64,000 nt of DNA from Chloroflexota bacterium (GCA_031368515.1 JANMNW010000674.1:3969-67968), one strand, 5' to 3'. Numbered from the stretch's first letter, positions 5,998-39,642 are shown. A program made the numbers and translations. The notes: generated by a model from the sequence alone, not told the origin.

Positions 5998-6299
5998 TCA
6001 GTATGCGACGAGCCGCTGCTTCAGATCTGCGCGCACGCGCTCAAACTCCGATTGAACGGCCTCCGCATGCGCCGTCAGTCCCTCCACCGCGCCCGCGCGC
6101 GCTGCCGAATCCAAATCGGCCGCATACTGCACGAGCCGTGCCGCGCCGATGAAGCGTGAGCCGGCCGCGATCTGCTGAGCAATCGTTCGCGCGGTTTCGT
6201 GATCGCGCGCGCGCGCCGATTCAGTCAGGCGCGCAATCTGCGCCGAAAGGTCATCCAAATACACGGATGCGACCGCGCCGGCTGTTTGATCCGAGCCGT

Positions 6300-6312
<13 letters not shown>
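5998..6312 (-). CDS. Hpt-like four-helix protein; canonical phospho-accepting His position is Gln
   Basis: 104 aa, helical. ARTIAQQIAAGSRFIGAARL aligns with the Hpt signature A-H-x-L-K-G-S-x-x-x-x-G-A but has Q at the His position. The start overlaps the stop of the hybrid kinase by 13 nt. Confidence 0.45.
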
Positions 6313-8914
<2,602 letters not shown>

Positions 8915-8918
<4 letters not shown>

Positions 8919-9466
8919 GCCGGTTGCGGCATGCGCGTCAACACCCACTCGGCATGGGTGCCATCTTCCGCGCCCGCGTCGCGCTGCAGGGTGATGTTTT
9001 CACCAAAGTGTTGGATGCACCCCATGATCAGGCCCTCGGCCACGCCGGCAAAGGGCCGGACCGAGCGGTATGTCAGGCGCGCGCCGCCGTCCGCGGCCAA
9101 GTCCACAGAAATGCGCGGCAGCTCGGCATCCGGATATAGCTTGCGCACTTCCACATGAATGTAGCCATCGATCCGTTGCAGCATGTCAAAAGCGCTGGTC
9201 ACACCCTCGAAAAATGCCGGATACAACGTGGAGAAACGGCCAAACAGATAGCGGCCAAACGCGCGGGTTAGATCGGGCAACGGCACGCCTGTCTGCGCGC
9301 TCAGCGCGACCACCATGCTGAGCATCTCGCGATGGTCGTAACTGCCGACGGCCGTGTACGCCCCGCCCGACGGCAAGTCGGACTTGGTGATGATGTCGTC
9401 GGCAACGTCAACGCCAAAGGTCTGCTCGACCATCTCGATAAATTCGGTGAAGACCATTCCTTTCAT
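8915..9466 (-). CDS. hnoX: H-NOX (heme NO/O2-binding) sensor protein
   Basis: MKGMVFTEFIEMVEQTFG N-terminus, a proximal-His candidate in IDGYIHVEVRKLYP, and the heme-propionate motif Y-x-S-x-R (LTYRSVRP). Stand-alone at 183 aa and translationally coupled to the kinase. Confidence 0.85.
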
Positions 9467-9481
9467 TGTTGTGCTCCAGTG

Positions 9482-10795
9482 TCAAGCATGCTGCGATGAA
9501 AAAGCGGCGCGTTCCCGGCGATATAGCATCAGGTCCCAAACTAGCACCGCGCCAAACAGGCCGGCCATGAGGACGACCTGAATCAAAACAACGTCGCGCA
9601 GCGTGGCGTGAAACAGCCACAGCGCAGCGACTTGCGACACGCCGCCACAAATCGCAAACACACTGCCAAGTTTGTTGCCCGCCGAGAGCCGGTAGTTGAT
9701 GATCACATTGGCCAGCGCATAGAACGCCGTCGCCAGCGCATACAGCCACACCAGCGGCGCAACCGGCAGATAAGCGGCCCCAAACAGCAGCCGCACGATA
9801 AACTCCGGCGCGGCATAGGCCGCCACGACAATGGCCGCGCTGACCGCTCCCACCAGCCCCAATGAATTGACCAGCAGGTGATGATGACGCTCGCCGCGCG
9901 CATGGCGTTGCGCAACGATCGGAAAGAGCGTGGTCACCACCGACCAGGTGGCAAAAAACACGATGCGTCCGATCAGCGCCAGCGCCGCATACTGGCCGGC
10001 GTCTTCGGCCGCAAAGAAGTGTTTGACCATCAGCACATCGCTGTTGTTGATCAGGATCTGACCGACCAGCGCGCCGCCGGCCGCCAGCGCAAAGCGGCCG
10101 ACCGCTCGGCGCTCCTCGGCCGGCACCGTCGCCGTTTCGCCGACGCCGGGCCGCTCGGCGGGTGCGCGCGCGATGACCAGGGCGGCGGCCAGCGACACCA
10201 GCAGCGCCGCCACCACGCCGTTGACCTCCAGGCCAAGCGCAAGCAGCGCCACGGCGACGATCAGGCGCGACCACATTTCGGCCTGATAGCTGGCGGCCAG
10301 GCGGCCAAACCGCGTGCGGCCTTGCAGCGCGCCTCGATCGACGGAGACGGCCAAATAGACCGGAACGCCAAATCCAAGAACCGCCAACGGCAGCGCCGAT
10401 GCCAGATGGAAAAAGTCGCGCAACAGCGGCGACAGGCCGGCAAAAACCACCGCGAAGCCCAGCCCGGTCATCCAGGCCAGCCGCGAAAGCCAGCGCTTCA
10501 GCGCGGCTCCCTGCCCGCGCAGCATCGCGCTGCCCGCGCCGTCCGTCGCGTAATGGGTGGCGACAAACTTGGAGGTGACCATGATCAACGCCGCCGCCAC
10601 AAACGAAAACAGCAGCAACAGCGTGACCATCAGGCTGGCATCGGCAAACGCCGCTGGTCCAAGCCAGCGGCCCAGCACAATGTTGAAGGCATAGTTGCCG
10701 ACGTTGACCAGCGTGCTGCTGACAAACAGCAGCCCGCCGCCGCGCAGCAGCTCGCCGGGCGCCGGCAGCTTGCCGCGCCCTAGTGCCTTAAGCAT
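9482..10795 (-). CDS. Polytopic membrane protein, MOP/Wzx-type oligosaccharide flippase family
   Basis: 437 aa with about 12-14 hydrophobic helices. The N-terminal GGLLFVSSTLVNVGNYAFNIVLGRWLGPAAF resembles polysaccharide-biosynthesis (PST) flippases. Confidence 0.6.
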   Translation of the reverse strand: MLKALGRGKLPAPGELLRGGGLLFVSSTLVNVGNYAFNIVLGRWLGPAAFADASLMVTLLLLFSFVAAALIMVTSKFVATHYATDGAGSAMLRGQGAALKRWLSRLAWMTGLGFAVVFAGLSPLLRDFFHLASALPLAVLGFGVPVYLAVSVDRGALQGRTRFGRLAASYQAEMWSRLIVAVALLALGLEVNGVVAALLVSLAAALVIARAPAERPGVGETATVPAEERRAVGRFALAAGGALVGQILINNSDVLMVKHFFAAEDAGQYAALALIGRIVFFATWSVVTTLFPIVAQRHARGERHHHLLVNSLGLVGAVSAAIVVAAYAAPEFIVRLLFGAAYLPVAPLVWLYALATAFYALANVIINYRLSAGNKLGSVFAICGGVSQVAALWLFHATLRDVVLIQVVLMAGLFGAVLVWDLMLYRRERAAFSSQHA

Positions 10796-26017: not shown

Positions 26018-27889
26018 CTAGACCGCCACCACGCGCAATTCGATATCGGCCAGCGTCACGGCATCGCCTGGCTGCAGCGCAACCCGGGCATGCGCCGCCA
26101 GCCGCTCGCCATTCTTGCGTGTGCCATTCGACGAATTCAGATCGGTCACATGCAAGCCACCGGCCATGTCAAAGCGCGCGTGCGCGGCCGACAGAAAAGC
26201 GCTCGGCAACGTCACCGCATGCGCGCCGCACGGCGCGCGGCCGAGCACCAAGCCGTCGGCGCTGGCCGGAACCACGATGTCGCGGCCGGCTTGCGCACCG
26301 CTGGACACGCGCAGGCGCAGCCCGCCGCTTGCCACCTCGCCCGGCGCGGCAGCATTGATGAGATGCGTGCCTGACGCGCTGTGACCAAACTCAGCGGCCG
26401 GCGGCGCGACCACCGCGCGTACCAGCGTTTGCGCGTCGCCGCCGACTCGCGCGTGCCGCACACCAAATGCCGCATCTGCCGCAAGCGCATTGTGTGGCCT
26501 GGGCGGCGCATATGAGCGGCGCGCGCGAAGGGCAATGGCCGCGCCGCCAAGCAGCGTGACGACGGTCGTGGCAAGTCCGGCCACACCCGCAAGCGAGATC
26601 GAAACGCTGGGCGCCGGCGCAGCCTCGGCGCCAAGACCCGCCTGCGCCAGCGCGTGCGCAGCTGCAGTATCGGCGACGGCCAGCAACACTACGCGCTCGC
26701 CATACAACCGCATGTCTTGCACGCTGCCGTAGGCCCTGATCTTCAACGCTGTCGGCACGTTCGGGTCGAGCATGGCGGTGTCCAGCGTCAAGCTGAACGG
26801 CGGGCGCGCGGCCACTTCGGTGCGCGCGCCCAGCGTGTACTCTACGCGCTCGATATGCCGCCCCAGCACGCGCGGCGTCAAGCGAATTTGCTGCTCCATG
26901 GGCAGTGCCTGCGGGGCGACGGGTGCGCCTGCCGCCGCCAACTCCGGCCAATCGACAATCGGCGCAGCCGGCATGGGCACGAACGTCTGCGCAGCCTGCA
27001 GCGTGTCCATGCCCGCCCGCACGCGCACCACCGCCATGCGTTGGGTCAACGCCGGCGCCGCCCATGCGTCAAACCGCAGGCGGTAGCGCGCCCTCTGCCG
27101 CCAGGCGATCTGTGCGAAGGCGTGAGCGATGGCGTTCTTTGCGCCGGCGGCAATGTGCAGGCCACCGCTCGCCTGAGCCAGCCGATTGAGCGCGCGATGG
27201 TCCGCCGCGCCCACGCCAATGCTGATGATCGGCACGCCGTGAGCGCGTGCCAATGCAACGGCCTCGTCCAATGCGCACGCCGGTCCCAGCGCACTTCTTG
27301 CTGGCGCATCGCGGCCATCGCCAATTGCAATGATTACGCGCGCAATCTGCTTGCGCGAAGCCGACTTTTCGACTTCATCGCACAGCGCGTCGTAGAAGCG
27401 CGCGCGTGGGTCCGGGAGCAGCGCCTGAATAGCAGCGCGCGCTGATGCCGCGTCATTTTCAATCAGCGGTGACGCTGAGGGTGCATCGACTGACGCGCCC
27501 GCAACACGCCACAGCAAGGCGTCGCCCGGATCAATCGCGTCCAATGCCCTTGACGCGGCGTCGTTGAGCGCGCGCATCGAGCGCATCGGAACGCCAGGGT
27601 CAACGAGCACCGTCACATGCATGCGCACCGCCGGGTCGGCAAGCTTGCGCAGGCTCAACACGCGAGCGGGCGCGCCGGCGCTTTCGACGGTCACATCACC
27701 CGCCTGCACGTCATCAATCGGATCGCCGCGCCGATTGCGCAGCACCAGTTCGCACGACACCTCTGGATAGGCCGCGGCATCACACTTCTCCAGAACGGCT
27801 ATGGCGGAATCCAACGCGCGCGCAGGATTTGGCCTTTGCAGCGCACCGCACCCGAACGCGCACAAAAGCGCGGCCATCAGCAGGCGCAT
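26018..27889 (-). CDS. Signal peptide + extracytoplasmic vWA-like domain + TM helix + cytoplasmic FHA domain
   Basis: N-terminal MRLLMAALLCAFGCGAL. vWA-like blocks VTVLVDPGVPM (degenerate MIDAS), VIIAIGDGRDA, GVPIISIGVGAADHRALNRLAQASGG. TM helix LAGVAGLATTVVTLLGGAAIAL followed by RARR. C-terminal FHA: LVLGRAP..., SAAHARF, DLNSSNGTRKNGERL. Its start lies 1 nt after the upstream stop. Confidence 0.7.
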   Translation of the reverse strand: MRLLMAALLCAFGCGALQRPNPARALDSAIAVLEKCDAAAYPEVSCELVLRNRRGDPIDDVQAGDVTVESAGAPARVLSLRKLADPAVRMHVTVLVDPGVPMRSMRALNDAASRALDAIDPGDALLWRVAGASVDAPSASPLIENDAASARAAIQALLPDPRARFYDALCDEVEKSASRKQIARVIIAIGDGRDAPARSALGPACALDEAVALARAHGVPIISIGVGAADHRALNRLAQASGGLHIAAGAKNAIAHAFAQIAWRQRARYRLRFDAWAAPALTQRMAVVRVRAGMDTLQAAQTFVPMPAAPIVDWPELAAAGAPVAPQALPMEQQIRLTPRVLGRHIERVEYTLGARTEVAARPPFSLTLDTAMLDPNVPTALKIRAYGSVQDMRLYGERVVLLAVADTAAAHALAQAGLGAEAAPAPSVSISLAGVAGLATTVVTLLGGAAIALRARRSYAPPRPHNALAADAAFGVRHARVGGDAQTLVRAVVAPPAAEFGHSASGTHLINAAAPGEVASGGLRLRVSSGAQAGRDIVVPASADGLVLGRAPCGAHAVTLPSAFLSAAHARFDMAGGLHVTDLNSSNGTRKNGERLAAHARVALQPGDAVTLADIELRVVAV

Positions 27890-27890
27890 G

Positions 27891-29450
27891 TCAGATCACC
27901 ACCCGCAAGGCCGTCGATCCCAGCACCAGCTCGTCGCCAATATCCACCACACACGGCCCATCGATGCGTTGACCGCGCACCAGCACTCCATTGGCCGCGC
28001 GCGGCATCGGCCGCACGTGCCAGGCGTTGTCGGAAAAATGGAGCTCCGCATGCCAGCGCGAGATTTCGCGGTCGGCCGGGTTGAGCATGTCGCGGCCCAG
28101 CAGCATGGGCGAGCCCGTCACTGGCACGATGCGGCGCGCAGCAGCCACATGCAGCCGTATCGGCCGCAGCGCGTGTGGGGGCTTGTCCGCATCATGCGCT
28201 TGCGCGGCCAATCCATCCGCGCCCCGGACATCCGCGATGAGGCGCGCAAGTTCGCGCGCGCTGATCATGCGCCTGCGCGCATCCATGCCCAGCGCAAGAT
28301 GAATTGCCGCCCGCAGCTCGCGCGGCAGCGCCAGCCCGGCATCATCAAGAGCAACAGATTGGCCAGGCGCCGACCTCATTTGCGCATCATCGCATCCAAG
28401 CAACTGGCAGGCCAGGCTGGCGAATGCGCGCATGTCCGACGCCGCGCCGCCGCCGTCATCTGCCCGGGCCGCCGCGCCCGTTCGCGCCGCAAACAGCCGG
28501 GCCAGGCCCGCGTTGGCCAGTTGAATGTGATTGTCGGCGCCGATCAACACGTCGCCGGCTGTCAGCGCGCCATGCGCAAGCCCGGCGTCATGCAGCGCTG
28601 CCAACGCTTCCGATAGCTCATGCATGAGCCGCAAGGCTTCATGTTGCGGCGCCCGCTCGCGCATGCGGCCGGCCAGCGAGCCACCATGCGCAAAGGCTTC
28701 GATCAGATAAGGCGGTTCATGCGCGTCATCACCGCCATAGATCGGCGCCACAAGCGCATGCTTGAACGCCATCCCGGCGCGCAGATGCCGGGCAAAGCTG
28801 GCGCGCAACCCGTCCGGATCGCGGCGCAACAGCGTGTCGTTTAGAAATTTCACCGCAACCGCGCATCCCTCGCCCTCAGCGCAGCGCGCATCAGGCAGCC
28901 GCCCCGTCCGTAGCGCCGCCCGCCGCACCACGAAATGCTGGCCGACATGCACCACCTCGTCCAAATCGCACTGGCTGAGCCGAATCGGCTGTGAGCCCGC
29001 GCACGCAGCAGGCACGGCAGCGGCGCAATCGTTCGGCACAGCGCGTGGAATGGGCCACTCGCACCCAGCGCCAAGCACGGCATACACCGAACGCCCAATT
29101 TGGAATTGATCACCCGGCGCCAGCAATTCGTCGAAGACACGCCGGCCGTCGATCCAGGTGCCGTTGGCGCTGCCCAGATCGCGCAAGCGCAGTTCCGTCG
29201 CCGCGCGTTGCACCATCGCATGCTCGCGCGACGCATCCGGATCGGCGATGCGCGCCGGGCAGTGCGCCCCGCGGCCAATCAACAGCGCCTCGTCGCCAAT
29301 CCGGTAAAACGCGCCGTCGTTGGCGCCGGCCACACAAGCCAGCATCAAGCTCGGCTGGCGGCGGCGCTGCCGGCGGCGCAACAGCACCACCACGACCAAC
29401 ATAAGCAAAAGCGCCATGCACGGCGCGGCCCAAAACATCCACATTGGCAT
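27891..29450 (-). CDS. Membrane-anchored FHA - pseudokinase - FHA protein
   Basis: TM helix MWMFWAAPCMALLLMLVVVVLL + RRRQRRRQ. FHA1: LLIGRGAHC..SREHAMV..DLGSANGTWIDGRRV. The kinase-like core has VAVKFL, YLIEAFAHGGSL and LHDAGLAHGALTAGDVLI (HRD changed to HGA), then IQLANAGLA (DFG changed to NAG). FHA2: LLGRDM..SRWHAEL..ANGVLVRGQRI. The start is ATG 29450, or 29444 which has better SD spacing. Confidence 0.7.
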   Translation of the reverse strand: MPMWMFWAAPCMALLLMLVVVVLLRRRQRRRQPSLMLACVAGANDGAFYRIGDEALLIGRGAHCPARIADPDASREHAMVQRAATELRLRDLGSANGTWIDGRRVFDELLAPGDQFQIGRSVYAVLGAGCEWPIPRAVPNDCAAAVPAACAGSQPIRLSQCDLDEVVHVGQHFVVRRAALRTGRLPDARCAEGEGCAVAVKFLNDTLLRRDPDGLRASFARHLRAGMAFKHALVAPIYGGDDAHEPPYLIEAFAHGGSLAGRMRERAPQHEALRLMHELSEALAALHDAGLAHGALTAGDVLIGADNHIQLANAGLARLFAARTGAAARADDGGGAASDMRAFASLACQLLGCDDAQMRSAPGQSVALDDAGLALPRELRAAIHLALGMDARRRMISARELARLIADVRGADGLAAQAHDADKPPHALRPIRLHVAAARRIVPVTGSPMLLGRDMLNPADREISRWHAELHFSDNAWHVRPMPRAANGVLVRGQRIDGPCVVDIGDELVLGSTALRVVI

Positions 29451-29466
29451 CTCCCCACCGCTGCGC

Positions 29467-29781
29467 TCAGGCCCCGCCCCGCCGCAAGCGGTCTTCGATT
29501 TCCCGGCGCGCGCGCTCCTCGGCTTCCTGCACAATGTGGGCCGTATCTCGCAAAATTCCAGCAATGCGCGAAAGCATGCCTGGCAGCTGCGCAGAACGCG
29601 CGGCGCACGACTGCGCCTGCGCGCTGAATTCGTCGGAAGCGATGCCGTCCCAGGCCTCGAGTGCCTGTTGCGTGGCCTGCCCCGCCTGAGTCAGCACGTC
29701 GGTTTCGCCCGCTGCGCCTCGCTCAAACTCGCGGGCCACGGCGCGCATCTCGTCATAGTCGATTCCCAAAATAAAGGACAT
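29467..29781 (-). CDS. WXG100-family protein (paralogue 4)
   Basis: 104 aa helical hairpin. MSFILGIDYDEM N-terminus, central W-D-G, GGAG upstream of the ATG at 29781. Confidence 0.8.
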   Translation of the reverse strand: MSFILGIDYDEMRAVAREFERGAAGETDVLTQAGQATQQALEAWDGIASDEFSAQAQSCAARSAQLPGMLSRIAGILRDTAHIVQEAEERARREIEDRLRRGGA

Positions 29782-29805
29782 CTTTCGCTCCAACAGCCGG
29801 CGGGG

Positions 29806-30114
29806 TCACCCATCGGCCGAAATCGTGTGCGCAATCTCGGCGCGCGCCAGCGCCTCATGCTCTTCGACGATGCGCGCGGTTTCGCGCACATCGGTTGCCA
29901 GTTCGTCAAGCAGCGCCAGCGCGCGGCGCATGCGCGTGCGGCAGCTGAGGAGCTGCGCCATGAACTCCTGTTCCGCCACGCCATCCCAGCCTTCAAGCAA
30001 TTGCCGGTTGCGCGCATCGGCCCGGGCGAGGCAGCGCTTGATCACGCCGCCCTGCGCATCGAATGCTTGAGCCGTCGCCCGCAGCGCGTCGTATGGCGCC
30101 CGTATCGAGCTCAT
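29806..30114 (-). CDS. WXG100-family protein (paralogue 3)
   Basis: 102 aa with central LEGWDGVAEQEF. ATGA overlap with the stop of paralogue 2. Confidence 0.8.
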   Translation of the reverse strand: MSSIRAPYDALRATAQAFDAQGGVIKRCLARADARNRQLLEGWDGVAEQEFMAQLLSCRTRMRRALALLDELATDVRETARIVEEHEALARAEIAHTISADG

Positions 30115-30434
30115 GCTTCGCCTCCGGCAGTGTCATTGACCACGGCTGTCTCAATGGCGTCGCGCGCGCGCTGCTCCGCCAGGCGAATGGTGCGCGCCGT
30201 GATGTGCAGCGCAGTGCTGATCTGGTCAAGCACGAGCGGCACATGGCTCATGTCGCGCAGGCAGGCGGCGTAAGCCGGGTCAAATGCCGCGCGCGCCTTG
30301 CCCAGCCACAGCGGCGTCAGCTCGCCCACCGCTCGCTCAATGGCATGTATTGCCGCACGGGCTTCCTCTGCGCAACCGCCGATATCGAGCGCCACCGCCG
30401 TCATTTCGTCATAATTCAGGCGAATCTGGCCCAT
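30111..30434 (-). CDS. WXG100-family protein (paralogue 2)
   Basis: 107 aa. MGQIRLNYDEM, central W-L-G. AAGGAAGGA lies upstream of the ATG. Confidence 0.8.
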   Translation of the reverse strand: MGQIRLNYDEMTAVALDIGGCAEEARAAIHAIERAVGELTPLWLGKARAAFDPAYAACLRDMSHVPLVLDQISTALHITARTIRLAEQRARDAIETAVVNDTAGGEA

Positions 30435-30452
30435 CGAATCCTTCCTTGATCA

Positions 30453-30479
30453 ATGCGCGGCGCGGGTTGCCCCGCGCAT
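30453..30479 (-). promoter_or_regulatory. GC-rich stem-loop between WXG100 paralogues 1 and 2
   Basis: On the minus strand, GCGCGGG-GCAA-CCCGCGC (30460-30477) forms a 7-bp stem with a GNRA-type tetraloop. An alternative 8-bp stem is ATGCGCGG/CCGCGCAT (30453-60/30472-79). No U-tract follows. Confidence 0.5.
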
Positions 30480-30527
30480 CGAGCACCGTTCTAACAACTT
30501 GAAAAAATGAATTTGAGGGTTCGAACG

Positions 30528-30839
30528 CTAATTCGTGTCGTCCACGATCGCGCTGCCGATCTGCGCCCGCGCTTCTTCTTCAGCGCGCTGCACGAGGTCG
30601 GACGCTGTTTTGATGGCGGTGGAAATTTCGCTCATCATCAGCGGCGTGTGCTGCAGGCGCGCCATGCACGAATCGATCTGGGCGAGGAACTCGGTGTCCG
30701 CCACGCCCTCCCAACCCGCGCTCAGCTTGTCCGACTCGCCTTTCACGCGCTTAACCAGCTCGTCCGCCTGCTGCGACATCTGCATAAAGGTGTTCGAGCT
30801 CGCCGCCATCTCTTCATAGTTCATCTTGATTTGGCTCAT
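30528..30839 (-). CDS. WXG100-family protein (paralogue 1)
   Basis: 103 aa. MSQIKMNYEEM, central SAGWEGVADTEF. AAAGGAG lies upstream of the ATG at 30839. Confidence 0.85.
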   Translation of the reverse strand: MSQIKMNYEEMAASSNTFMQMSQQADELVKRVKGESDKLSAGWEGVADTEFLAQIDSCMARLQHTPLMMSEISTAIKTASDLVQRAEEEARAQIGSAIVDDTN

Positions 30840-30909: not shown

Positions 30910-30945
30910 ATGAAGCTGACAGTTCCTGACAGTTCTGTCAGGTTC
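30910..30945 (-). promoter_or_regulatory. 36-bp operator-like element, copy 1 (upstream of the WXG100 operon)
   Basis: The plus strand reads ATGAAGCTGACAGTTCCTGACAGTTCTGTCAGGTTC. It matches 35985-36020 at 35 of 36 positions. It contains three 7-mers (CTGACAG, CTGACAG, CTGTCAG) starting at offsets 0, 10 and 19. Confidence 0.75.
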
Positions 30946-30955
30946 GCACATGCGC

Positions 30956-31582
30956 TCAGGCGAGCTTGAGCATGTAGCCCTTGCCGCGCACAGTCACGAT
31001 GAGGTCGCCCGCATCAGGGCTGATGCCGCGCAGCCGCAGCCGCAACCGGCTCAGCACTTGATCGAGCGCGTCGGAATCCATCAGGCCGTCGTAGTTGTGG
31101 CCCCATACCGCGCGGGCGCAATCGTGCCGCGCGCACACTTCACCGCGATGCTCAAACAAGTGCAGCAACAGGGCTTGTTGATCGCTGGACAAGTCGATTT
31201 TTTCGGCGTCCCAGAAAAAGCACCAGACTTTGAAATCGAAGCGCAAATGCGTGACCGGCTGCACAGTCTTGTCTTTGTCCAGATACACAATCAACCCGGT
31301 CGGATCGCCCAGGCCGATCTCGTCACCGTGCTTCAGCTTGTGGGGCGCACGCAACGGCCGGCCGTTGACAAATGTGCCATTCTGGCTTTGGCTGTCGCAC
31401 AAGACAAAGTAGTGACCATCCCAGGCAATGCGCGCATGCAGCCGTGATGTCAATGGACGCAGCACCACCATGGCGCAATCGCTCGCCCGGCCCAGCGTGC
31501 AGCCGCCGGCAGGCAGCACAATCATCTGCGGTGTGACTTCGGGAAAATTCGCCCGCAGTGCTTTGGTCGATGTCTTTGTCAT
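30956..31582 (-). CDS. FHA domain + OmpR/PhoB-type winged-helix DNA-binding domain transcriptional regulator
   Basis: FHA: CTLGRASDCAMVV..SRLHARI..DSQSQNGTFVNGRPL. C-terminal wHTH: LSSDQQALLLHLFEHRGEVCARHDCARAVWG...DALDQVLSRLRLRL...IVTVRGKGYMLK. ATG at 31582 lies within the longer ORF. Confidence 0.8.
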   Translation of the reverse strand: MTKTSTKALRANFPEVTPQMIVLPAGGCTLGRASDCAMVVLRPLTSRLHARIAWDGHYFVLCDSQSQNGTFVNGRPLRAPHKLKHGDEIGLGDPTGLIVYLDKDKTVQPVTHLRFDFKVWCFFWDAEKIDLSSDQQALLLHLFEHRGEVCARHDCARAVWGHNYDGLMDSDALDQVLSRLRLRLRGISPDAGDLIVTVRGKGYMLKLA

Positions 31583-31608: not shown

Positions 31609-34600
31609 TCATTGATTTTCCGGCGCTTTTAGCACAGCTTGCCCAATCGCGCTCAGCCAGTCGCCCCAGCCCCAGCCCTCCTCTTGCGGCACGGCAAATC
31701 GCGCGCGCAGCGGTTTGGACTGCCTGCGGCAGGTGTAGTAGCCGTGCCCGGCCGGCAACGGCTTGTCGCGTTCGCCCACGGGCAAGCGCAATCCAAAACC
31801 GACTGATTGCAGGCCGCCCAACACCACCCACGACTGCGCGTCCTTGATGCGTTTGAGCCAGCCGTCCAGCGCATCAAGCGCGCGATCAGGCCCGGCCATC
31901 AGCACATGAAAAGGCAAGCGTAAGCCGGCGCGTTCCAACAGGCCATCCAGCCGCTCTTTGGCCACGCGCGGCAATGCGCGGACAAAAGCGTCGGCGTCGT
32001 CAATCGCAAGCACCACCGCGGGCAGGCCGCGGGCTATCGTGGATGCGCTCCATTCCGGCGTCGCCGCGCGCGCGGCATGCTGCATCTCGCCCATGCTTTC
32101 CAGCGTGGCGGCAAGCTCATCAAGCAGCGCAGGAATTTCATCGCCATGCTGCGCACACTGGCGCACGTGCGGCAACCCGGACAGCGCGGCCAAGCCGTCG
32201 TCCGCGCCGCTGACATCGCACAGATACACCATCAGCTGGTCGGGATCGCGCGCACGCGCCAGCGACAGCAGCATGCTTTGCAGCACGGAGGTTTTTCCGC
32301 TTTGCGGCGCGCCGGTGACAAGCACGTGCGGGCTGGCGCCGATGTCAATCCGCAAAGGTTGTAAGTCCGCGGTCTGCAGCCCAACCGTGGCGACAAGCGG
32401 CTCGCCGGCACGTTCGCCGGACACACGCGCATGCGGCGCATCAGCCAGAAGCGCGCGCAAAGTCAACTCGGCCGGCATGGTCGCAATCGGCGGCGCGCGC
32501 CGCCCGGCGTATTGCGCGCGCAATGCGCCAGCCGCTTCGGCCAGTTGCGCCGCGCGCTCGGCATCGGTGGCGCCCGGCGCTGGCAGCGCCGCCTGGAATT
32601 CCAGCGGGCTCTGCCCCATCCGTTTGATCAGCCCGCGCCCGGGCGTCGCCGCCGGTTCCAGGCCGCCCGTCCGTCCAACCACTGCGGCATAGTCGGAGCG
32701 ATCCGCCAGTTGAAACGCAAGCGCGGCCGTGATATTGCCGCTCACGCGGCTGCGCACGTCAAGCGGTTTGTTGGCGCTGATCACCACATGCATCCCCAGC
32801 GGCGCGCCTTCGCGCACTACAGTGACCAGCGTATCTTCGTAGTCCATGCGGGCAAAAGCCGGATAGTTGTCGATGACCAGCAGGATCGCCGGCATGCCAG
32901 CCGCGGCGCCCAGATCGGCAAACTTGCGGCCGGCCAGCGCGTCTTTGCGCAAGGCCAATTCGCGCCGCAGCTGGCGAAACAGCCGCATCAGGCGTTCATC
33001 GTCGTCTTCAAACAGCACGGCGCCCACCTGCGGCAGCGCAGCCAACGCCGTCAGGCTGCGGCTGCCAAAGTCCAGCACGTAGGCATTTAGCTCGTCGGGC
33101 GAATGCGCACGCGCCAGCGCTAGCAACAGTGTTTGCAGCAAGGTTGATTTGCCTGCACCGGCCTGGCCGAACATCATCAGGTGCCCATCGCGGCCCAAAT
33201 CGATGATTGCCGCATCCTGCCGGCGCTCGCGCGGGTCGTCCATGCGGCCAATGACTGCGCGCAACCAGCCCGCAGTGTCGCCGGATGCGGCCGCCGATTC
33301 AAGCAGCAGCCGTTCGGGCAATGGATCGAGCCAGATGCGTTCGGCCGCTTGCACGTGTTCGGCGAGCGTTGTCCGGCGCACGTGGTCCATCAGCGCAGCC
33401 AACTGGCGCGGCTGTTCGCCGCCTGGCGGGCGCGGTTGCGTGATCCAGCAGCGCCGTTGCAGATCGGGCGTGCCATCGAGCAGCAGCGGCGCCACGTACC
33501 GTTGCGCCGCGTCCGGGTCTTCGTCCGGGTCGTAGCGCGCTCCGCCATACGCCGATTGAAATCGCTCATAGCGCTCATCGCTGCCCACCAGAAAGTATGC
33601 CTCTCCCGCGCGCGCAAGGTGAGCGGCATCGGGGCGTTTGAGCATTTCCTTGCTGTCACTTTCGTCCTGCACGCGCAGGCACAGCTTGAAGCGGCTGTTC
33701 GACCAGATCTGGTCGTCTACAACGCCAGACGGTTTTTGAGTGGCAAGGATCAGATGCACGCCCAGGCTGCGGCCGATTCGCGCGGCGCTGATCAGCTGCT
33801 TCATAAAGTCGGGCTGGTCGCGTTTCAGCTCGGCAAACTCATCCACGATGATCACCAGACGCGGCATGGCCTTGAAGCGATCGGCGCCGCCTGCCGCATA
33901 TAGGCGCTGATAGTCGTCGATATAGGTCACGCTGTGCTGATCAAAGATGCGTTGACGCCGCTTGAGCTCGCTGGCCAGCGCGATAAGCGCGCGGCGCGCG
34001 GCGCTGGGCTCAACGAGGTTGGTAATCACGCCGCTCAAATGCGGCAGGTCGATATCCGGCACGGGCGACACCGTGCGCGCGGCCGAACGCTGGCGCAGAA
34101 ACGCATTGGCCATGCCGCCGCCTTTGTAGTCAATCAACAAAAATGAAATCCACTCCGGGCTGAAGCGCACCGCCAGCGAAGCGATCAGGGTCTGCAACAA
34201 CTCGCTTTTGCCCGCGCCGGTTGTGCCGGCGACCAACCCATGCGCGCCATGGCCGCGATCTCCATCGCGCAAATCCAGCTGCAGCAATCGTCCACCCGCC
34301 GCGCGGCCGATCGGCACGACAAGCGAGCCTGCGTCCAAATGCGCATGCGTGCGCCACAGCCCGGCGACATCCACATCCTCCACGTGGCGGGCATCCCACA
34401 GTGAAAGCAGCGTCACGGCCGCAGGAATTTCAGCGGGTGCGGCGGTGCGGCGCAGCCGGATGGCTGACAGCGAGCGCGCCAACGCCTCGCACTCCAGCCC
34501 CGGCAGCGCGTCTACGCTGTCGAGCTGTCGCGGGCGGCCGTTGTCGGTCGCCGCAAACAGACGCGCGCGGCCGGCTTCATAGTGGACATAGGCGTCGCAC

Positions 34601-35946
34601 TCGCGCGGCAACAGATGCCGGTGGTCCGCCAGAAACACCGCGGTAAACCCTGCGCCGCGCGCCAGCGCAAGCAACTGCGGCAGCGCAGCATCTTGGCCAA
34701 ACAGGCCGGGCTCCGCCAGAAAGAAAAGGGTATGGCGCGGAAGCTGTTCAGCCCGCGCCTTGCGATGCGCGGCCAGCAAGACGGCGTCAAGCGCGCGTTT
34801 GGCGCCGTCGGGGTCGCACGCCAGCAGGCGATGGCGGTGTTCGGCATCCCACGCATGCGGCAACCAGCGCATCCAGCGCCACGCATCGCCCTCAGTTTCC
34901 GGGAAAACCGCGGCGAGTGCGAGATCGTCCGGGCTGTGATGCGCGGCCAGCTGCGCCGCCAGCGCGAAACAGGCGCGCAGCAGCGCGGCGCGCGGGCCGG
35001 CCAGCCCCAGCGCGCGCAACTGGCCGACCGGCACGCACAGCGGCACGCGCTCGATCGCGGCAAACGCGTCCGCCAGTTCAAGCATGCGGTCGCCCAGCGC
35101 ATCGGGCGCCAACAACGGCTCGTAGCGCGCAGTCTTGATCGTGAAGCGGGCGGGCGCGCGCCCAAGACCGATACGCGCCTGCAAGTAATCGGGGTCGCCC
35201 GGTTCGCGCATCCACACGCGCGCGCATTGCCGCACGCGGCCGCGCAGAGTGTGCAAGTCCGGGTCCTCGTCCAGCGCTTCGATTCGCAGGCGATTGACTT
35301 GCGCCGCCAGCTGCGCGCGACGTTGCTCCAGATATGAGTCGTAACGCGCGGCGCGTTCAGCCATATCGCGGGCATGGCGGCGCCGTTCGCTGACATAGGA
35401 CCACAGGCCTGTCAGCGCGGACGCGCCCATGAATCCGGTGGTGAGAAAGTTCATCGGACCGTTGGCATGCGGCAAGCTCACCGTTGCGGCCAGAGATGCG
35501 ACGGCAAACGCCGCCGGCATTACGATGCCCGGCCATTGCAGGCGCGGCGCGCTTGGCGCGTTGGGCGGCGCGGTCAGTTCGATCTCACCCCCTTCCAATT
35601 GAAAAAATGGACGCGGCGGGCGCTGGAAGAATGGCTGCGGCTTGGCGGGCAAAACGGCGGGCGAGCGGTCGCTGTGTTGCGGCCGCTCGGATACGCAGAC
35701 CAGATGCACCTGCGCGCCATCCCAAACACCAGCGTGATCCAGACTGTCCTCTGCCCGCAGCGGCACGCGCGCGTCGCATTGCTCGGCATGCGAGATGATC
35801 CAGTGTTGGCCGGCAGGGCATCGCCAGTCCAGCGCGCTGGCGATGGCCGGCGCAAGGTCATAGGCTGGCACATCAGCGGGCGCGCGCACGTCTTCGGGCG
35901 GCCAGCCTGCGGCATTGGCTGTAACAAACACCTGTCGCATCGTCAT
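31609..35946 (-). CDS. EssC/EccC-like FtsK/SpoIIIE-family type VII secretion ATPase with N-terminal YukD-like ubiquitin fold
   Basis: N-terminal ~85 aa resemble YukD/EsaB (QHWIIS..., SLDHAGVWDGAQVHLV). Two TM helices (WPGIVMPAAFAVASLAATVSL, MNFLTTGFMGASALTGLWSYV). Three P-loops: GTTGAGKSE, GQAGAGKST, GAPQSGKTS. Walker B motifs: VIIVDEFAEL, LLVIDNYPAF, VLAIDDADAF. The start is 35946 or 35940, not 35979 (see findings). Confidence 0.9.
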   Translation of the reverse strand: MTMRQVFVTANAAGWPPEDVRAPADVPAYDLAPAIASALDWRCPAGQHWIISHAEQCDARVPLRAEDSLDHAGVWDGAQVHLVCVSERPQHSDRSPAVLPAKPQPFFQRPPRPFFQLEGGEIELTAPPNAPSAPRLQWPGIVMPAAFAVASLAATVSLPHANGPMNFLTTGFMGASALTGLWSYVSERRRHARDMAERAARYDSYLEQRRAQLAAQVNRLRIEALDEDPDLHTLRGRVRQCARVWMREPGDPDYLQARIGLGRAPARFTIKTARYEPLLAPDALGDRMLELADAFAAIERVPLCVPVGQLRALGLAGPRAALLRACFALAAQLAAHHSPDDLALAAVFPETEGDAWRWMRWLPHAWDAEHRHRLLACDPDGAKRALDAVLLAAHRKARAEQLPRHTLFFLAEPGLFGQDAALPQLLALARGAGFTAVFLADHRHLLPRECDAYVHYEAGRARLFAATDNGRPRQLDSVDALPGLECEALARSLSAIRLRRTAAPAEIPAAVTLLSLWDARHVEDVDVAGLWRTHAHLDAGSLVVPIGRAAGGRLLQLDLRDGDRGHGAHGLVAGTTGAGKSELLQTLIASLAVRFSPEWISFLLIDYKGGGMANAFLRQRSAARTVSPVPDIDLPHLSGVITNLVEPSAARRALIALASELKRRQRIFDQHSVTYIDDYQRLYAAGGADRFKAMPRLVIIVDEFAELKRDQPDFMKQLISAARIGRSLGVHLILATQKPSGVVDDQIWSNSRFKLCLRVQDESDSKEMLKRPDAAHLARAGEAYFLVGSDERYERFQSAYGGARYDPDEDPDAAQRYVAPLLLDGTPDLQRRCWITQPRPPGGEQPRQLAALMDHVRRTTLAEHVQAAERIWLDPLPERLLLESAAASGDTAGWLRAVIGRMDDPRERRQDAAIIDLGRDGHLMMFGQAGAGKSTLLQTLLLALARAHSPDELNAYVLDFGSRSLTALAALPQVGAVLFEDDDERLMRLFRQLRRELALRKDALAGRKFADLGAAAGMPAILLVIDNYPAFARMDYEDTLVTVVREGAPLGMHVVISANKPLDVRSRVSGNITAALAFQLADRSDYAAVVGRTGGLEPAATPGRGLIKRMGQSPLEFQAALPAPGATDAERAAQLAEAAGALRAQYAGRRAPPIATMPAELTLRALLADAPHARVSGERAGEPLVATVGLQTADLQPLRIDIGASPHVLVTGAPQSGKTSVLQSMLLSLARARDPDQLMVYLCDVSGADDGLAALSGLPHVRQCAQHGDEIPALLDELAATLESMGEMQHAARAATPEWSASTIARGLPAVVLAIDDADAFVRALPRVAKERLDGLLERAGLRLPFHVLMAGPDRALDALDGWLKRIKDAQSWVVLGGLQSVGFGLRLPVGERDKPLPAGHGYYTCRRQSKPLRARFAVPQEEGWGWGDWLSAIGQAVLKAPENQ

Positions 35947-35984
35947 TTCCAGGAACGGCGATAGTGTGCGACAAAGCATGCAGA

Positions 35985-36020
35985 ATGAAGCTGACAGTTG
36001 CTGACAGTTCTGTCAGGTTC
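35985..36020 (-). promoter_or_regulatory. 36-bp operator-like element, copy 2 (upstream of essC-like gene, in the divergent region with the kinase)
   Basis: The plus strand reads ATGAAGCTGACAGTTGCTGACAGTTCTGTCAGGTTC, one mismatch from copy 1. Confidence 0.75.
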
Positions 36021-36081: not shown

Positions 36082-36145
36082 CCGGAGAAAACTTTAAGAG
36101 TTTTCATCTCTTAAAGAGATGAAAACTCTTAAAGTTTTCTCCCGG
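36082..36145. repeat. AT-rich 64-nt near-perfect palindrome with nested GAAAAC-N7-GTTTTC sites
   Basis: GGAGAAAACTTTAAGAGTTTTCATCTCTT (36084-36112) | A (36113) | AAGAGATGAAAACTCTTAAAGTTTTCTCC (36114-36142) forms 29 perfect base pairs. The outer CC/GG pair follows after a 1-nt bulge. Each arm contains GAAAAC-N7-GTTTTC (36087-36105 and 36121-36139). Confidence 0.85.
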
Positions 36146-36188: not shown

Positions 36189-38201
36189 ATGGGCACGTCC
36201 CAGGCTTGTCAAGGGGTTGTTGTGGCGTTTGATCTGATTGGAAAAACGCTCGGCCCATACCGCATTGACGCATTGCTCGGCGCTGGCGGCATGGCCGAGG
36301 TGTACAAAGCCTTTCAACCGAGCATGGACCGCATTGTCGCGCTCAAAGCGCTCCCGGCCGCGCTCAGCGCACAGCCGGAGTTTCGCGAGCGCTTTCGCCG
36401 CGAAGCAAAGCTGATCGCCCAGCTCAAGCACACGCACATTCTGCCGGTGTATGACTTCGGCGAAGCCGAAGGCCACGCCTACCTGGTCATGCCGCTGATG
36501 GAAAACGGCACGATCGCTTCGCGCGTGCGCGGCCGCCGCCTCCCGCTCGAAGACATCGTGCGCGTCGGCACGCAAATCGGCGACGCGCTCGATTACGCGC
36601 ACGAAAAAGGCATGGTGCATCGCGATGTCAAACCAGGCAACATCCTGCTCGACACGCGCGGCAATTGCCTGCTCAGCGACTTTGGCATCGCGCGGATGAC
36701 GGTCGACACGCTCACGCCGGATCAATCGCGCATGGGCACGCCTGCCTACATGTCGCCCGAACAAGCCGAAGGCGACAACATCGACGGCCGCTCCGATGTT
36801 TATTCGCTGGGCGTGGTGCTCTATGAACTGGCCACTGGGCGACGACCGTTTGACTCGTCCGACCCCAATGTGCTGATGTATCAGCACGCACACAATACGC
36901 CGCCTGCCCCGCGCAGCATCGATCCCACCCTTCCCGAGCAGCTGGAATGGGTCATCCTGCATGCGATGGCCAAACGCCCGGCCGACCGCTTCATCAATGG
37001 CGCTGAGCTTGGCCGGGCGCTGCGCCCGCTGATTATCAGCGAGCGCAGCGGTCCCGATGCCGCACGCCCGCGCATCGCCCCGGATTTGCCGGTCGCCAGC
37101 AAAGTTGCCGGGCCTGTGGCCTCGGATGCCGCAACTGCGCCGCGCCCCAACGCCGAAGCCCCGCCGCCCGCGCGGAATGCGCCGCTCAATACCGCGCTGC
37201 TGCCCGCAGGCGTGGCGCGCCCGGGTGCCGCGCGCCCGGCTTTCCAACCGGCGCCCTTCGCGCCACCGGCGCCGGCCAAAGCGCGTTGGCGCCTCCCCAG
37301 ATTCAGACGGATTTTCGCCATCGGACAGAGCGCACGGCCGTCGCCGGCAAGCTACGGATATGGCGGCGCGCACGAACGGTCCAGGCCGCTGTTCAACACG
37401 CTTTTTGCCGGGCTGGCCGGCGCGATTATTCTGGTGCTGCTGGCCAGCGCGGTCAGCAACTTCTTGCGCAGCATCAACGAGCAGGCTGCGGCCATCGCGC
37501 CGCCCACCGCCACCTATGCGGCTTTCGCCACAGCGTTGGCTGATGCGACAGAAACGCCGGCGCCGGCTGAGACTCCTGCGCAAGTGACAGTCGCCGCCGC
37601 AGCCGATGCCCCGGCTGTTGCAGTGACAATCGCGCCCGCGCAAGTCACCGAAACGCCTTTGAGCGCGCGGCCGCTTGCCGAGCCGGCGGCCTGCGCGCGC
37701 GCCAGCGCGCTGACGCTCGACCCCGGCCAGCTCCAGGGCGTCGGATGTCCATCGCAGGCATTGGTGCCGGCGCGGCGCGTGATGGTGCAGACATTCGAAC
37801 GCGGCATCATGGTGCTGTTTCTGCGCAACAACAGCGCGTTGAACGGCGGGGTCATCTACGCGCTCGCAAGCGATGGCCACGCCTGGCGCATCAGCGACAC
37901 CTGGGCCAGCGCTTCACGCAATCGCGACACTTGGTACTCGTGCCGCGCGGCGCCCGGGCAATCGCCCGCGCAATCCGGTGTGCCATGGCGCGGATTTGGG
38001 CGGGCATGGTGCAACGACCAGGCGCTGGCCTCTGCTTTGGGTGCGGCCGTCACGGAAGAATCGGATGCGCGAGCGGCTTTCCAGGCGCATGCCAACGGGC
38101 GCGTCTTTCGGCTGGACAACTGGCCCGGCGCGCCTGGCTTTGCGCCGGAGCGCATCTATGCCGTGGCCATGCTCGACAATCGCTCCGAGCAGTGGCGCTG
38201 A
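36189..38201 (+). CDS. Receptor-type Hanks Ser/Thr protein kinase (kinase, Pro/Ala-rich linker, TM helix, Cys-containing ectodomain)
   Basis: LGAGGMAEVYKA, VALK, HRDVKPGNILL, SDFGIA, GTPAYMSPEQ. TM helix LFAGLAGAIILVLLASAVSNFL. The ~230-aa C-terminal domain has 4 Cys. Confidence 0.9.
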   Translation: MGTSQACQGVVVAFDLIGKTLGPYRIDALLGAGGMAEVYKAFQPSMDRIVALKALPAALSAQPEFRERFRREAKLIAQLKHTHILPVYDFGEAEGHAYLVMPLMENGTIASRVRGRRLPLEDIVRVGTQIGDALDYAHEKGMVHRDVKPGNILLDTRGNCLLSDFGIARMTVDTLTPDQSRMGTPAYMSPEQAEGDNIDGRSDVYSLGVVLYELATGRRPFDSSDPNVLMYQHAHNTPPAPRSIDPTLPEQLEWVILHAMAKRPADRFINGAELGRALRPLIISERSGPDAARPRIAPDLPVASKVAGPVASDAATAPRPNAEAPPPARNAPLNTALLPAGVARPGAARPAFQPAPFAPPAPAKARWRLPRFRRIFAIGQSARPSPASYGYGGAHERSRPLFNTLFAGLAGAIILVLLASAVSNFLRSINEQAAAIAPPTATYAAFATALADATETPAPAETPAQVTVAAAADAPAVAVTIAPAQVTETPLSARPLAEPAACARASALTLDPGQLQGVGCPSQALVPARRVMVQTFERGIMVLFLRNNSALNGGVIYALASDGHAWRISDTWASASRNRDTWYSCRAAPGQSPAQSGVPWRGFGRAWCNDQALASALGAAVTEESDARAAFQAHANGRVFRLDNWPGAPGFAPERIYAVAMLDNRSEQWR

Positions 38202-38202
38202 A

Positions 38203-39642
38203 CTAGCGCCACAGGTCGAGCTGCGGCGGCGCGGTATCCGGAAACCAGCGCGCATAGATCTCGGCGTAGCTGCCATCGGCGATCATTTGCTGCAACGCAA
38301 GATTGACCGCGTCGCGCAGCGGCGATTGTCGCTGGGGCAGACCGATGGCCACAGTCGTGTCGCCGGCGCGATAGATCGGTGTTGAAAAATCGATCACCCG
38401 GTCAAGCGTCTGTGTGCGCGGCAGCCCGCCGATCACCAGATCGGCCGTCCCGGCGGCAAAAACTTGTGCCGCATCGCCAGCCAGCGGCAAAAACTCAACC
38501 GACTCCGCCGAACCCATCACGCGTGCGCCGATGGCGCGAGACAGCTCCACCTCAAACCCGCCCGGCAAATTGTTCTCTTCAAGCCGGGAAAAAGGCGGAT
38601 TGCTGGCAAAGGCCACGCGCAAACGATTGGCCGCGCGAGCTTGGGCCAAACGATCAACCGATTGCAGCGCGTCAGGCAGCTGCGCAAGCTGCAAGTCGAT
38701 CGGCCCCAGCAGGGGCGCCAGCGCCGAAGGATCGGGCGGCGCGCCAAACCATTGTTGATACAGGCGCGCATACGTGCCGTCCAACATCATGTTGCTCAGC
38801 GTGATGTTGACCAGGTCCGCCCACTCGGAATCGCCTGGCGGCAGCACAATGGCCACCGGTTCGCGCTTGAAGACGCTCAGGACAAACAGCGCGGGGTCCT
38901 GCGCCGCGCGCGTGCGCAAGCGGCGCCAGCGCCCGGCCATGCCATCCACATCGCCGTTGGCCAGCAGGCCGTATGCCTCGGCATAGGTGCTGGCCGCCTT
39001 GGTCGTCACTGTGACGCCATTGACGTTTTGCGCATCGCGCAGTGCAAAGGTGCTCGCGTCGTCAACGTAGACGATCGGCCGCCCGGCCAGCGACACAAAA
39101 TCCGAGAACGTCCCGGTGCGCACTAGCAACGCATCGCCGTCCTGCAGGTAGGGCATGCTGAAATCCGCTTCAAGCTCGGCGGCGCGGCTCTGCACAATGC
39201 CGCCCATGGCCAGATCGACCTCTCGCGCGCGCACTTTGCCCGGCGCCGAATTGCTGGTGACCTGAACAAACTCAACATTGCGATCGCTGCCCAGCCAGCG
39301 CCGCGCAAACTGCCGCGCCAAATCCACGTCAAAGCCTTCGAGCTCGCCACGGTCGTTTACCCGCGACAGCGGCGGGGCATCAAAGCGAATGCCGACGCGA
39401 ATGCGGCTGCGCAGCTTGACCAGCGCCGCGGTTGAATAATCCGGCGGCGGCGGCGTCACCGAGGCTTCGATCGTCACCGGGTCGGCCGTGGCCACCACGC
39501 GCGCAATCGAATCGACATTGACGTAGCGCTGCACGGTGTCCAGCGAAAGCGAGCTGCACGCGGTCATAGCCAGCGTCAGCAACGCCGCCAGCGCGCGCCG
39601 CGCCGCGCCGATGCCTGTAGCTTTGCCCACGGTCTCACTCAC
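38203..39642 (-). CDS. Lipoprotein with two tandem family-3 (amino-acid type) solute-binding domains
   Basis: Lipobox LTLAMTACSS. Two repeats of the SBP_bac_3-like pattern: IRVGIRFDAPPLS...GFDVDLAR and LRVAFASNPPFS...GFEVELSR. Confidence 0.8.
   Translation of the reverse strand: MSETVGKATGIGAARRALAALLTLAMTACSSLSLDTVQRYVNVDSIARVVATADPVTIEASVTPPPPDYSTAALVKLRSRIRVGIRFDAPPLSRVNDRGELEGFDVDLARQFARRWLGSDRNVEFVQVTSNSAPGKVRAREVDLAMGGIVQSRAAELEADFSMPYLQDGDALLVRTGTFSDFVSLAGRPIVYVDDASTFALRDAQNVNGVTVTTKAASTYAEAYGLLANGDVDGMAGRWRRLRTRAAQDPALFVLSVFKREPVAIVLPPGDSEWADLVNITLSNMMLDGTYARLYQQWFGAPPDPSALAPLLGPIDLQLAQLPDALQSVDRLAQARAANRLRVAFASNPPFSRLEENNLPGGFEVELSRAIGARVMGSAESVEFLPLAGDAAQVFAAGTADLVIGGLPRTQTLDRVIDFSTPIYRAGDTTVAIGLPQRQSPLRDAVNLALQQMIADGSYAEIYARWFPDTAPPQLDLWR

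Follow-up and report, generated by a model that had tools for sequence, protein, structure and literature searches.

An FHA phosphothreonine reader probably replaces the receiver in an OmpR/PhoB-type regulator from a type VII-like secretion locus of Chloroflexota

The gene described here probably encodes a transcription factor in which an FHA phosphothreonine (pThr) reader stands in place of the receiver of an OmpR/PhoB response regulator. It lies in a 64,000-nt stretch of DNA from a Chloroflexota bacterium (hereafter, the window). The encoded protein is a member of an unnamed FHA-Trans_reg_C family, and the copy in the window is a lineage-specific paralog embedded in a type VII-like secretion locus. 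Family members usually form a two-gene module with a Hanks kinase, through which signals are probably relayed into transcription. On balance, we favor the interpretation of a kinase-gated transcription factor, a variant of the principle known from EmbR and the FHA-EBPs.

Bacterial Ser/Thr kinases are known to control transcription mostly by phosphorylating ordinary response regulators and in a few special cases such as EmbR and AfsR. If our interpretation is right, compact FHA-wHTH proteins paired with a conserved kinase would offer a clean and minimal setting in which to study how pThr gates transcription. The copy in the window also provides a handle on the regulation of a poorly known type VII-like secretion system in Chloroflexota.

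Domain architecture of the regulator and its family

30956..31582, (-) strand: FHA-wHTH regulator gene (208 aa, P0001), starting 26 nt past the essC stop codon
31277..31564, (-) strand: FHA domain, residues 7 to 102 (Pfam, structure model, and Foldseek matches to GarA, OdhI, and EmbR)
30968..31246, (-) strand: winged helix, residues 113 to 205, with the recognition helix at 170 to 187 and the wing at 195 to 205 (Pfam, structure model, and Foldseek)

The start codon of the regulator is the ATG at 31582, with a Shine-Dalgarno-like GGGGAG 7 nt ahead of it, and the orthologs begin at the equivalent position. Pfam matched FHA at residues 28 to 92 (E = 1e-17; 64.8 bits versus a cut-off of 20.7) and Trans_reg_C (PF00486) at residues 127 to 205 (E = 4.2e-14; 52.8 bits versus a cut-off of 26.2); a third match, Yop-YscD_cpl, was under its own cut-off and overlapped the FHA stretch. 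Pfam gave no match to REC (Response_reg), BTAD, or Sigma54_activat on the 208-aa protein, which has no room for a BTAD and whose domain order is reversed relative to the EmbR/SARP type. Since it lacks a REC domain, the regulator is not an OmpR/PhoB response regulator, and since it lacks a BTAD and has the reverse domain order, it is not an EmbR/SARP protein either.

An AlphaFold2 model built on 31 homologs (mean pLDDT, 86.8; pTM, 0.54) comprised a beta-sandwich at residues 7 to 102, a low-confidence linker at residues 103 to 112 (pLDDT of <50 at 106 to 109), and, at residues 113 to 205, an OmpR/PhoB-type fold with a four-strand N-terminal sheet, three helices, and a C-terminal wing. The mutual placement of the FHA domain and the winged helix in this model is uncertain at a pTM of 0.54. 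Foldseek placed the N-terminal half with FHA domains (GarA, OdhI, FhaA, and EmbR) and the C-terminal half with DNA-binding domains (PhoB, ArlR, and GlnR); among the PDB matches listed, none spanned both halves. In a profile search of PDB sequences, EmbR was the best match (E = 2.4e-22), aligned via its FHA domain only. NCBIfam response-regulator models all matched the C-terminal half only, with scores far under their cut-offs, and no NCBIfam model attained its cut-off on the regulator. These results bear out an earlier note on this DNA, which had described a 208-aa protein with an FHA domain first and a C-terminal OmpR/PhoB winged helix, without REC or BTAD and unlike EmbR in order and composition, and which had proposed the FHA and PF00486 HMM searches reported above. 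That note had named a C-terminal half without a Trans_reg_C score as grounds for dropping its claim, and this outcome did not occur.

The closest precedents share parts of this architecture. EmbR of Mycobacterium tuberculosis, which is under the control of kinase PknH, is a protein of about 388 aa with the order wHTH-BTAD-FHA (PDB 2FEZ/2FF4; PMC9239209, PMC4601284). Like the regulator, EmbR carries an OmpR/PhoB-type winged helix and an FHA domain in one polypeptide, and it is controlled by a Hanks receptor kinase, such as is also encoded near the regulator. However, EmbR is nearly twice as large, whereas the regulator consists of FHA, linker, and wHTH without a BTAD, and the FHA part alone aligns. 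In the FHA-bearing sigma-54 EBPs of Myxococcus xanthus, the FHA domain is reported to replace the receiver, as in the regulator, but the output is an AAA+ sigma-54 module instead of an OmpR/PhoB-type winged helix (Jelsbak, Givskov and Kaiser 2005; PMC549468, via PMC12288465).

The C-terminal domain has the same fold as the PhoB/OmpR family and aligns to about residues 120 to 228 of RpaB, CopR, and PhoB. The counterpart of PhoB Arg201, assigned by eye, is R179, which was kept in 107 of 113 homologous sequences. By analogy with the PhoB effector domain on the pho box (PDB 1GXP), the regulator would be expected to bind tandem repeats. Unlike PhoB/OmpR response regulators, which have a REC domain with a phospho-acceptor Asp, the regulator has neither, and its input is predicted to be pThr recognition. 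A C150-x5-C156 pair (window positions 31105 to 31135) opens helix alpha-2 of the regulator, EVCARHDCARAVW. This pair is kept in the secretion-linked clade and in clades of 41 to 47% identity and is missing from the class-wide paralog; it could be a redox site, a metal site, or just buried.

Of the 41 related genomes searched, 38 had a two-domain FHA-wHTH protein (E ≤ 1e-10), with a spread of 17 families within a single class. A word-indexed search recovered about 70 clusters with the FHA and wHTH architecture and a length of 200 to 220 aa. A profile search of 1.84 billion representative proteins gave 3,592 matches at an E value of 1e-30, multi-FHA proteins included, and at least 55 of the best 150 clusters at 50% identity were full-length, single-stretch matches of 205 to 245 aa. 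Automatic names within the family are either "FHA domain-containing protein" (from a Chloroflexi, Chloroflexota, or Anaerolineae bacterium) or "DNA-binding response OmpR family regulator"; the label "response OmpR family regulator" is misleading for these proteins. A full-text literature search returned no paper on the FHA and Trans_reg_C architecture, only the analogs EmbR/PknH, the Myxococcus FHA-EBPs, and ArnA. As far as we found, this large Chloroflexota family of 200- to 230-aa proteins is unstudied and known by automatic annotation only.

Contigs scanned with the pattern TVRGKGYM yielded ordinary OmpR-type regulators (from Planctomycetota and others), and none of the 80 loci aligned over both domains. 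Fusions to a kinase were sought among family members and none was found; the sole long fusion seen was of ParA-like, CHAT, FHA, and wHTH domains. In P0162 (1,014 aa, a metagenome representative), a family member sits behind ParA-like P-loop and CHAT protease domains, and a 45%-identical relative (L175) comes after separate CHAT and giant FG-GAP genes.

The secretion locus and the receptor kinase

26018..27889, (-) strand: weak VWA-like region with a C-terminal FHA, the last gene of the locus (orthologs in L001 and L174)
27891..29564, (-) strand: FHA, kinase-like, FHA membrane protein (Pfam and sequence reading)
29467..30839, (-) strand: four tandem WXG100 genes downstream of the regulator (Pfam WXG100 on all four)
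31609..35946, (-) strand: essC-like ATPase with three FtsK/SpoIIIE stretches, directly upstream of the regulator
36189..38201, (+) strand: receptor-type Hanks Ser/Thr kinase, candidate partner, divergent from essC (Pkinase, E = 5.5e-48)
38203..39642, (-) strand: SBP_bac_3 solute-binding protein, its gene adjacent to that of the kinase (adjacency also in L001, L115, and L174)

The order of SBP, divergent kinase, essC, FHA-wHTH regulator, four WXG100 genes, FHA-pseudokinase, and FHA protein was found in five orthologous loci (orthologous loci at 60 to 63% identity: L001/L114, L115, L003/L004, and L174). Four WXG100 genes also follow the regulator in L001, L003, and L174. The essC product has 1,445 aa and a weak YukD-like N terminus; promoter alignment of the orthologs suggests that essC starts at the ATG at 35946 rather than at 35979. 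The protein encoded at 27891 to 29564 is a probable pseudokinase, since it has HGA for HRD and NAG for DFG.

The gap from essC to the regulator gene is 26 nt in the window and 16 nt in L003, is replaced by a 4-nt overlap in L174, and holds hairpin or MITE-like insertions in two loci. Given this close spacing, the regulator is probably cotranscribed with essC and would be autoregulated if it acts on the essC promoter. In L001 (G002-type), three MITE-like copies (5278 to 5392, 9662 to 9790, and 10630 to 10776) are inserted between genes of the secretion locus, in its three intergenic regions; in this element, an internal hairpin is flanked by terminal inverted repeats, GTAACTGCTCAGGCC…GGCCTGAGTAGTTAC. 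In L003, essC is broken into at least five ORFs (6087 to 9984), through either gene degradation or assembly frameshift errors.

The kinase encoded at 36189 has 670 aa, one transmembrane helix near residues 400 to 430, and about 240 extracytoplasmic residues. Its catalytic motifs are intact (VALK50, HRD144, DFG164, and SPE189), and from these it looks active. Its gene is one gene away from that of the regulator, and its divergent position is kept in L001, L115, L003, and L174. In each of the four orthologous loci that were fetched, a tandem SBP_bac_3 gene adjoins the receptor kinase gene or, as in L003, is close to it, and the SBP_bac_3 protein could bring a ligand signal to the kinase.

Pairing of kinase and regulator was frequent across the family but not universal. 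Among 46 distinct family loci, 27 encoded a kinase domain no more than 600 nt away from the regulator gene; the kinase was divergent in 21 of these and lay immediately downstream, in the same orientation, in the other 6. Two orthologous secretion loci among the 46 had the kinase divergent from essC, as in the window; in 16 loci, a kinase was not seen within the fetched flanks, and one relative had no kinase within 9 kb. A 46%-identical relative shares its gene string with a Pkinase-AAA-TPR protein. With 18 Pkinase matches in the 5.9 Mb of the source genome (16 above the cut-off), chance adjacency would be expected at ~1%. The divergent kinases were 59 to 80% identical to one another, which argues for an ancient conserved pair with the regulator. 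The second FHA-wHTH/kinase pair of the same genome is on another contig.

The phosphothreonine pocket, the linker threonine, and a proposed mechanism

31265..31267, (-) strand: codon of Thr106 in the interdomain linker, a candidate phospho-acceptor (Thr in 112 of 113 sequences)

Since an FHA domain stands in place of the receiver, the signal would come from a Hanks-type Ser/Thr kinase rather than from a histidine kinase. The canonical pThr-pocket loops (Gly-Arg, Ser-x-x-His, and Asn-Gly-Thr) are present in the regulator FHA domain. In an alignment of 113 homologous sequences covering all subfamilies, G31, S46, R47, H49, and N68 were kept in all 113, G69 and T70 in 112 each, and R32 in 110. Binding of pThr is predicted from this intact pocket, in support of the proposal in the earlier note that pThr recognition takes the place of Asp phosphorylation. 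The FHA domain might instead be a phosphorylation-independent, constitutive adaptor, which would make the regulator an ordinary repressor or activator that binds DNA constitutively. Phospho-independent FHA interactions are known in other systems, and the window holds no PP2C phosphatase gene, the three PP2C matches of the genome being on other contigs. However, retention of every canonical pThr-contacting residue in at least 110 of the 113 sequences, together with the high kinase adjacency, makes such an adaptor highly improbable.

Thr106 lies about four residues beyond the last FHA strand, within the segment left disordered by AlphaFold. Since it is near-invariant and sits in a disordered linker beside a pThr reader, it is a strong candidate for a regulatory phospho-site. 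Its context is D-x-D-K-T-V-Q-P in the secretion-linked clade versus G-S-T-A-P-L in the other clades, which places Pro and Leu, respectively, at position +3. Pro at +3 is an atypical FHA preference, and Thr106 could be structural instead. The N and C termini of FHA domains face away from the peptide-binding loops, so Thr106 could not plausibly reach the pocket of its own molecule. Binding in trans would be favored, with dimerization as its likelier consequence.

The best structural matches to the FHA half, GarA and OdhI (PDB 6I2P, 2KFU, and 2KB3), are small kinase-docking FHA proteins switched by Thr phosphorylation in a flanking disordered segment. In GarA, the pThr precedes the FHA domain and engages it within one molecule (in cis), which shuts the protein off, and the outputs are metabolic enzymes, not DNA. 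The conserved Thr of the regulator, unlike that of GarA, lies C-terminal of the FHA domain, and binding in trans again appears more likely.

We propose a mechanism of four steps. The FHA domain of the regulator would dock on the autophosphorylated kinase, the kinase would then phosphorylate the near-invariant linker Thr106, and the FHA domain of a second regulator molecule would bind pThr106 in trans. The resulting dimer would set two winged helices on tandem DNA repeats, much as Asp-phosphorylated PhoB receiver dimers do. FHA dimers of Chk2 or MDC1 offer a parallel to the proposed dimer, and PhoB receiver dimerization offers a functional one. If true, trans binding between FHA and pThr would replace dimerization of Asp-phosphorylated receivers in assembling winged helices on tandem repeats. 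The specific steps of Thr106 phosphorylation and dimerization in trans are tentative, and the odds seem to us to be against them. We are similarly doubtful, while finding the idea worth stating, that Hanks kinases paired with FHA-wHTH proteins amount to a second, widespread type of "two-component system" across Chloroflexota, Thr-switched and trans-dimerizing.

It is also conceivable that the FHA domain reads pThr on the secretion machine itself (on the FHA-pseudokinase scaffold, EssC, or the VWA-FHA protein), with the regulator held at the membrane or released, so that transcription is coupled to secretion activity. Besides one active-looking kinase, three further proteins of the locus carry FHA domains or are kinase-like, and in each of the five orthologous loci the regulator gene is flanked by essC on one side and the substrate genes on the other. 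Yet the neighborhoods of most family members contain a kinase but no secretion genes, although the pocket and Thr106 are the same, which argues that the conserved partner logic is kinase-centered and leaves reading of the machine improbable. A secretion locus that encodes its own Hanks kinase and FHA proteins has a counterpart in the H1 type VI secretion system of Pseudomonas aeruginosa, where a threonine phosphorylation pathway of PpkA, Fha1, and PppA controls secretion. That control is post-translational, on the machine, and no fusion of FHA to a DNA-binding domain is involved. Under the doubtful idea of a second type of two-component system, the secretion-linked paralog would make the type VII-like system respond directly to an extracellular signal via the receptor kinase, perhaps together with the SBP.

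Heptamer arrays at the secretion promoters and across the genus

30910..30945, (-) strand: heptamer array CTGACAG-N2-CTGTCAG-N3-CTGTCAG, upstream of the first WXG100 gene
35985..36020, (-) strand: heptamer array, second copy, ahead of essC

The targets of the regulator are probably the promoters of its own locus. Both secretion promoters carry a 36-nt element that reads, in sense orientation, CTGACAG-AA-CTGTCAG-(C/G)AA-CTGTCAG and that had no match in 100 shuffles. At the WXG100 promoter, the array was recognizable in all four fetched orthologous loci (L001, L115, L003, and L174); at the essC promoter, it was recognizable in L001 and L174, with two of the three units in L115. In the WXG100 promoters, the third heptamer always lies 19 nt ahead of a conserved TGTCAT element, and a -10-like CATGCT lies 22 nt past the last heptamer. 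This spacing would put two direct repeats at about -50 to -35, beside a weak -35. The second and third units recur in direct orientation every 10 bp, a geometry that resembles the pho box.

These features could mean that the regulator is a dedicated activator of the two secretion operons, binding the 36-bp arrays directly under kinase 36189 alone. Besides the array at both promoters, its retention in orthologous loci, the fixed 19-nt spacing, and the pho box-like period, such a role would fit with the conserved locus encoding no DNA-binding protein other than the regulator. However, the arrays are spread far beyond these two promoters. The TGTCAG-N4-TGTCAG core occurs 32 times in the source genome (G000), whereas other spacers from 0 to 11 gave 0 to 2 copies each and a reversed control gave none; core copies with one mismatch numbered 40, about 20 above background. 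Three-unit arrays occur in nine places in this genome.

At least 19 of the 32 core sites have a plausible gene start in the same orientation within about 120 nt downstream. By N-terminal sequence, the genes following core sites include apparent radA, purE, HU, and patatin-like genes, as well as a PLD-like secreted protein, a REP-associated-transposase-like gene, and unknowns. Three-unit arrays were considered as a mark of a secretion regulon and rejected, as the downstream genes were mostly unrelated or of unknown kind.

Across the genus, core counts were 32 in G000, 29 in G003, 9 in G002, 1 in G001, and 0 in G004, with 0 to 3 in other genera. A relaxed three-unit pattern gave 4 to 11 arrays per genome in the five genomes of the genus (11 in G003 and 7 in G001), compared to 0 to 1 in controls. 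No EssC match and no close relative of the regulator were found in G003 (5.1 Mb, 20 contigs, 82% complete) or G001 (77% complete); the sole FHA-wHTH protein of G003 is 34% identical to the regulator and 42% identical to the second paralog. In G004, the heptamer variant at the secretion promoter (CGTCGG) resembles the other arrays of that genome, which suggests one shared reader. As a test for autoregulation, TGTCAG-type repeats were also sought between the class-wide paralog and its divergent kinase gene; none was conserved, and only -10-like TAnAAT boxes near start codons stood out. The arrays are therefore not assignable to that paralog either.

With core copies and three-unit arrays placed before unrelated genes, and with arrays in congeners that have neither EssC nor a close relative of the regulator, a dedicated activator of the two secretion operons seems rather unlikely to us. 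Most simply, the arrays would represent a promoter element found across the genus and recognized by a shared factor, with the secretion promoters as two of its clients, and it is more likely that the conserved arrays are read, at least also, by such a factor. The regulator may still bind them, since paralogous winged helices often share half-sites, and the arrays are in this sense a candidate operator, though a doubtful one. The earlier note had proposed a one-step route from the neighboring receptor kinase through the regulator to the secretion genes, with the two 36-bp promoters as its endpoint. The kinase end of this route has gained from the active-looking motifs, the single transmembrane helix, the divergent position in five orthologous loci, and an adjacency beyond chance. 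A private operator in the two arrays was not supported, and the spread of arrays through the genome and across genomes weakens an exclusive link from kinase 36189 via the arrays to the secretion genes.

Several observations concern the core sites themselves. Exact copies (32) nearly equal one-mismatch copies (40), an unusual ratio for a regulon and a hint that the motif has spread recently. The TGTCAG direct repeats keep a strict 10-bp period and point at downstream genes, with a -10-like hexamer about 22 to 23 nt later (examples in G000: C151:17254, C387:755, C634:19988, C276:10480, and C576:2707), and several start codons are so near the repeats that the mRNAs look leaderless.

Hairpins and mobile-element genes also occur next to the arrays. 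A perfect 29-nt palindrome lies between essC and the kinase gene (window positions 36084 to 36142): AAGAGATGAAAACTCTTAAAGTTTTCTCC. It resembles a repeated hairpin family, TTTAAGAGATGAAAACTGTTAGAGTTTTCGCC, found just upstream of TGTCAG arrays elsewhere in the genome (C42:15282, C304:87, C492:10989, and C564:767). At least three further hairpin families precede TGTCAG arrays, e.g., CATCTTAAGGT...ACGTGGGTAC and GGAAAGGTCAAGACCTGAAAGGTCA; they look like REP-like elements or terminators. At C564:767 and in L124 (G003), a three-unit array directly precedes an N terminus like that of REP-associated/IS200-like tyrosine transposases, and at C110:1842 an array adjoins a coding sequence that resembles the C terminus of such a transposase. 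On C576, a 350-aa protein with no Pfam match is encoded about 56 nt after the three-unit array at 2707 (-); with its helical WXG-like N terminus (…LDAGWQSY…) and proline-rich C terminus, it is a possible orphan secretion substrate.
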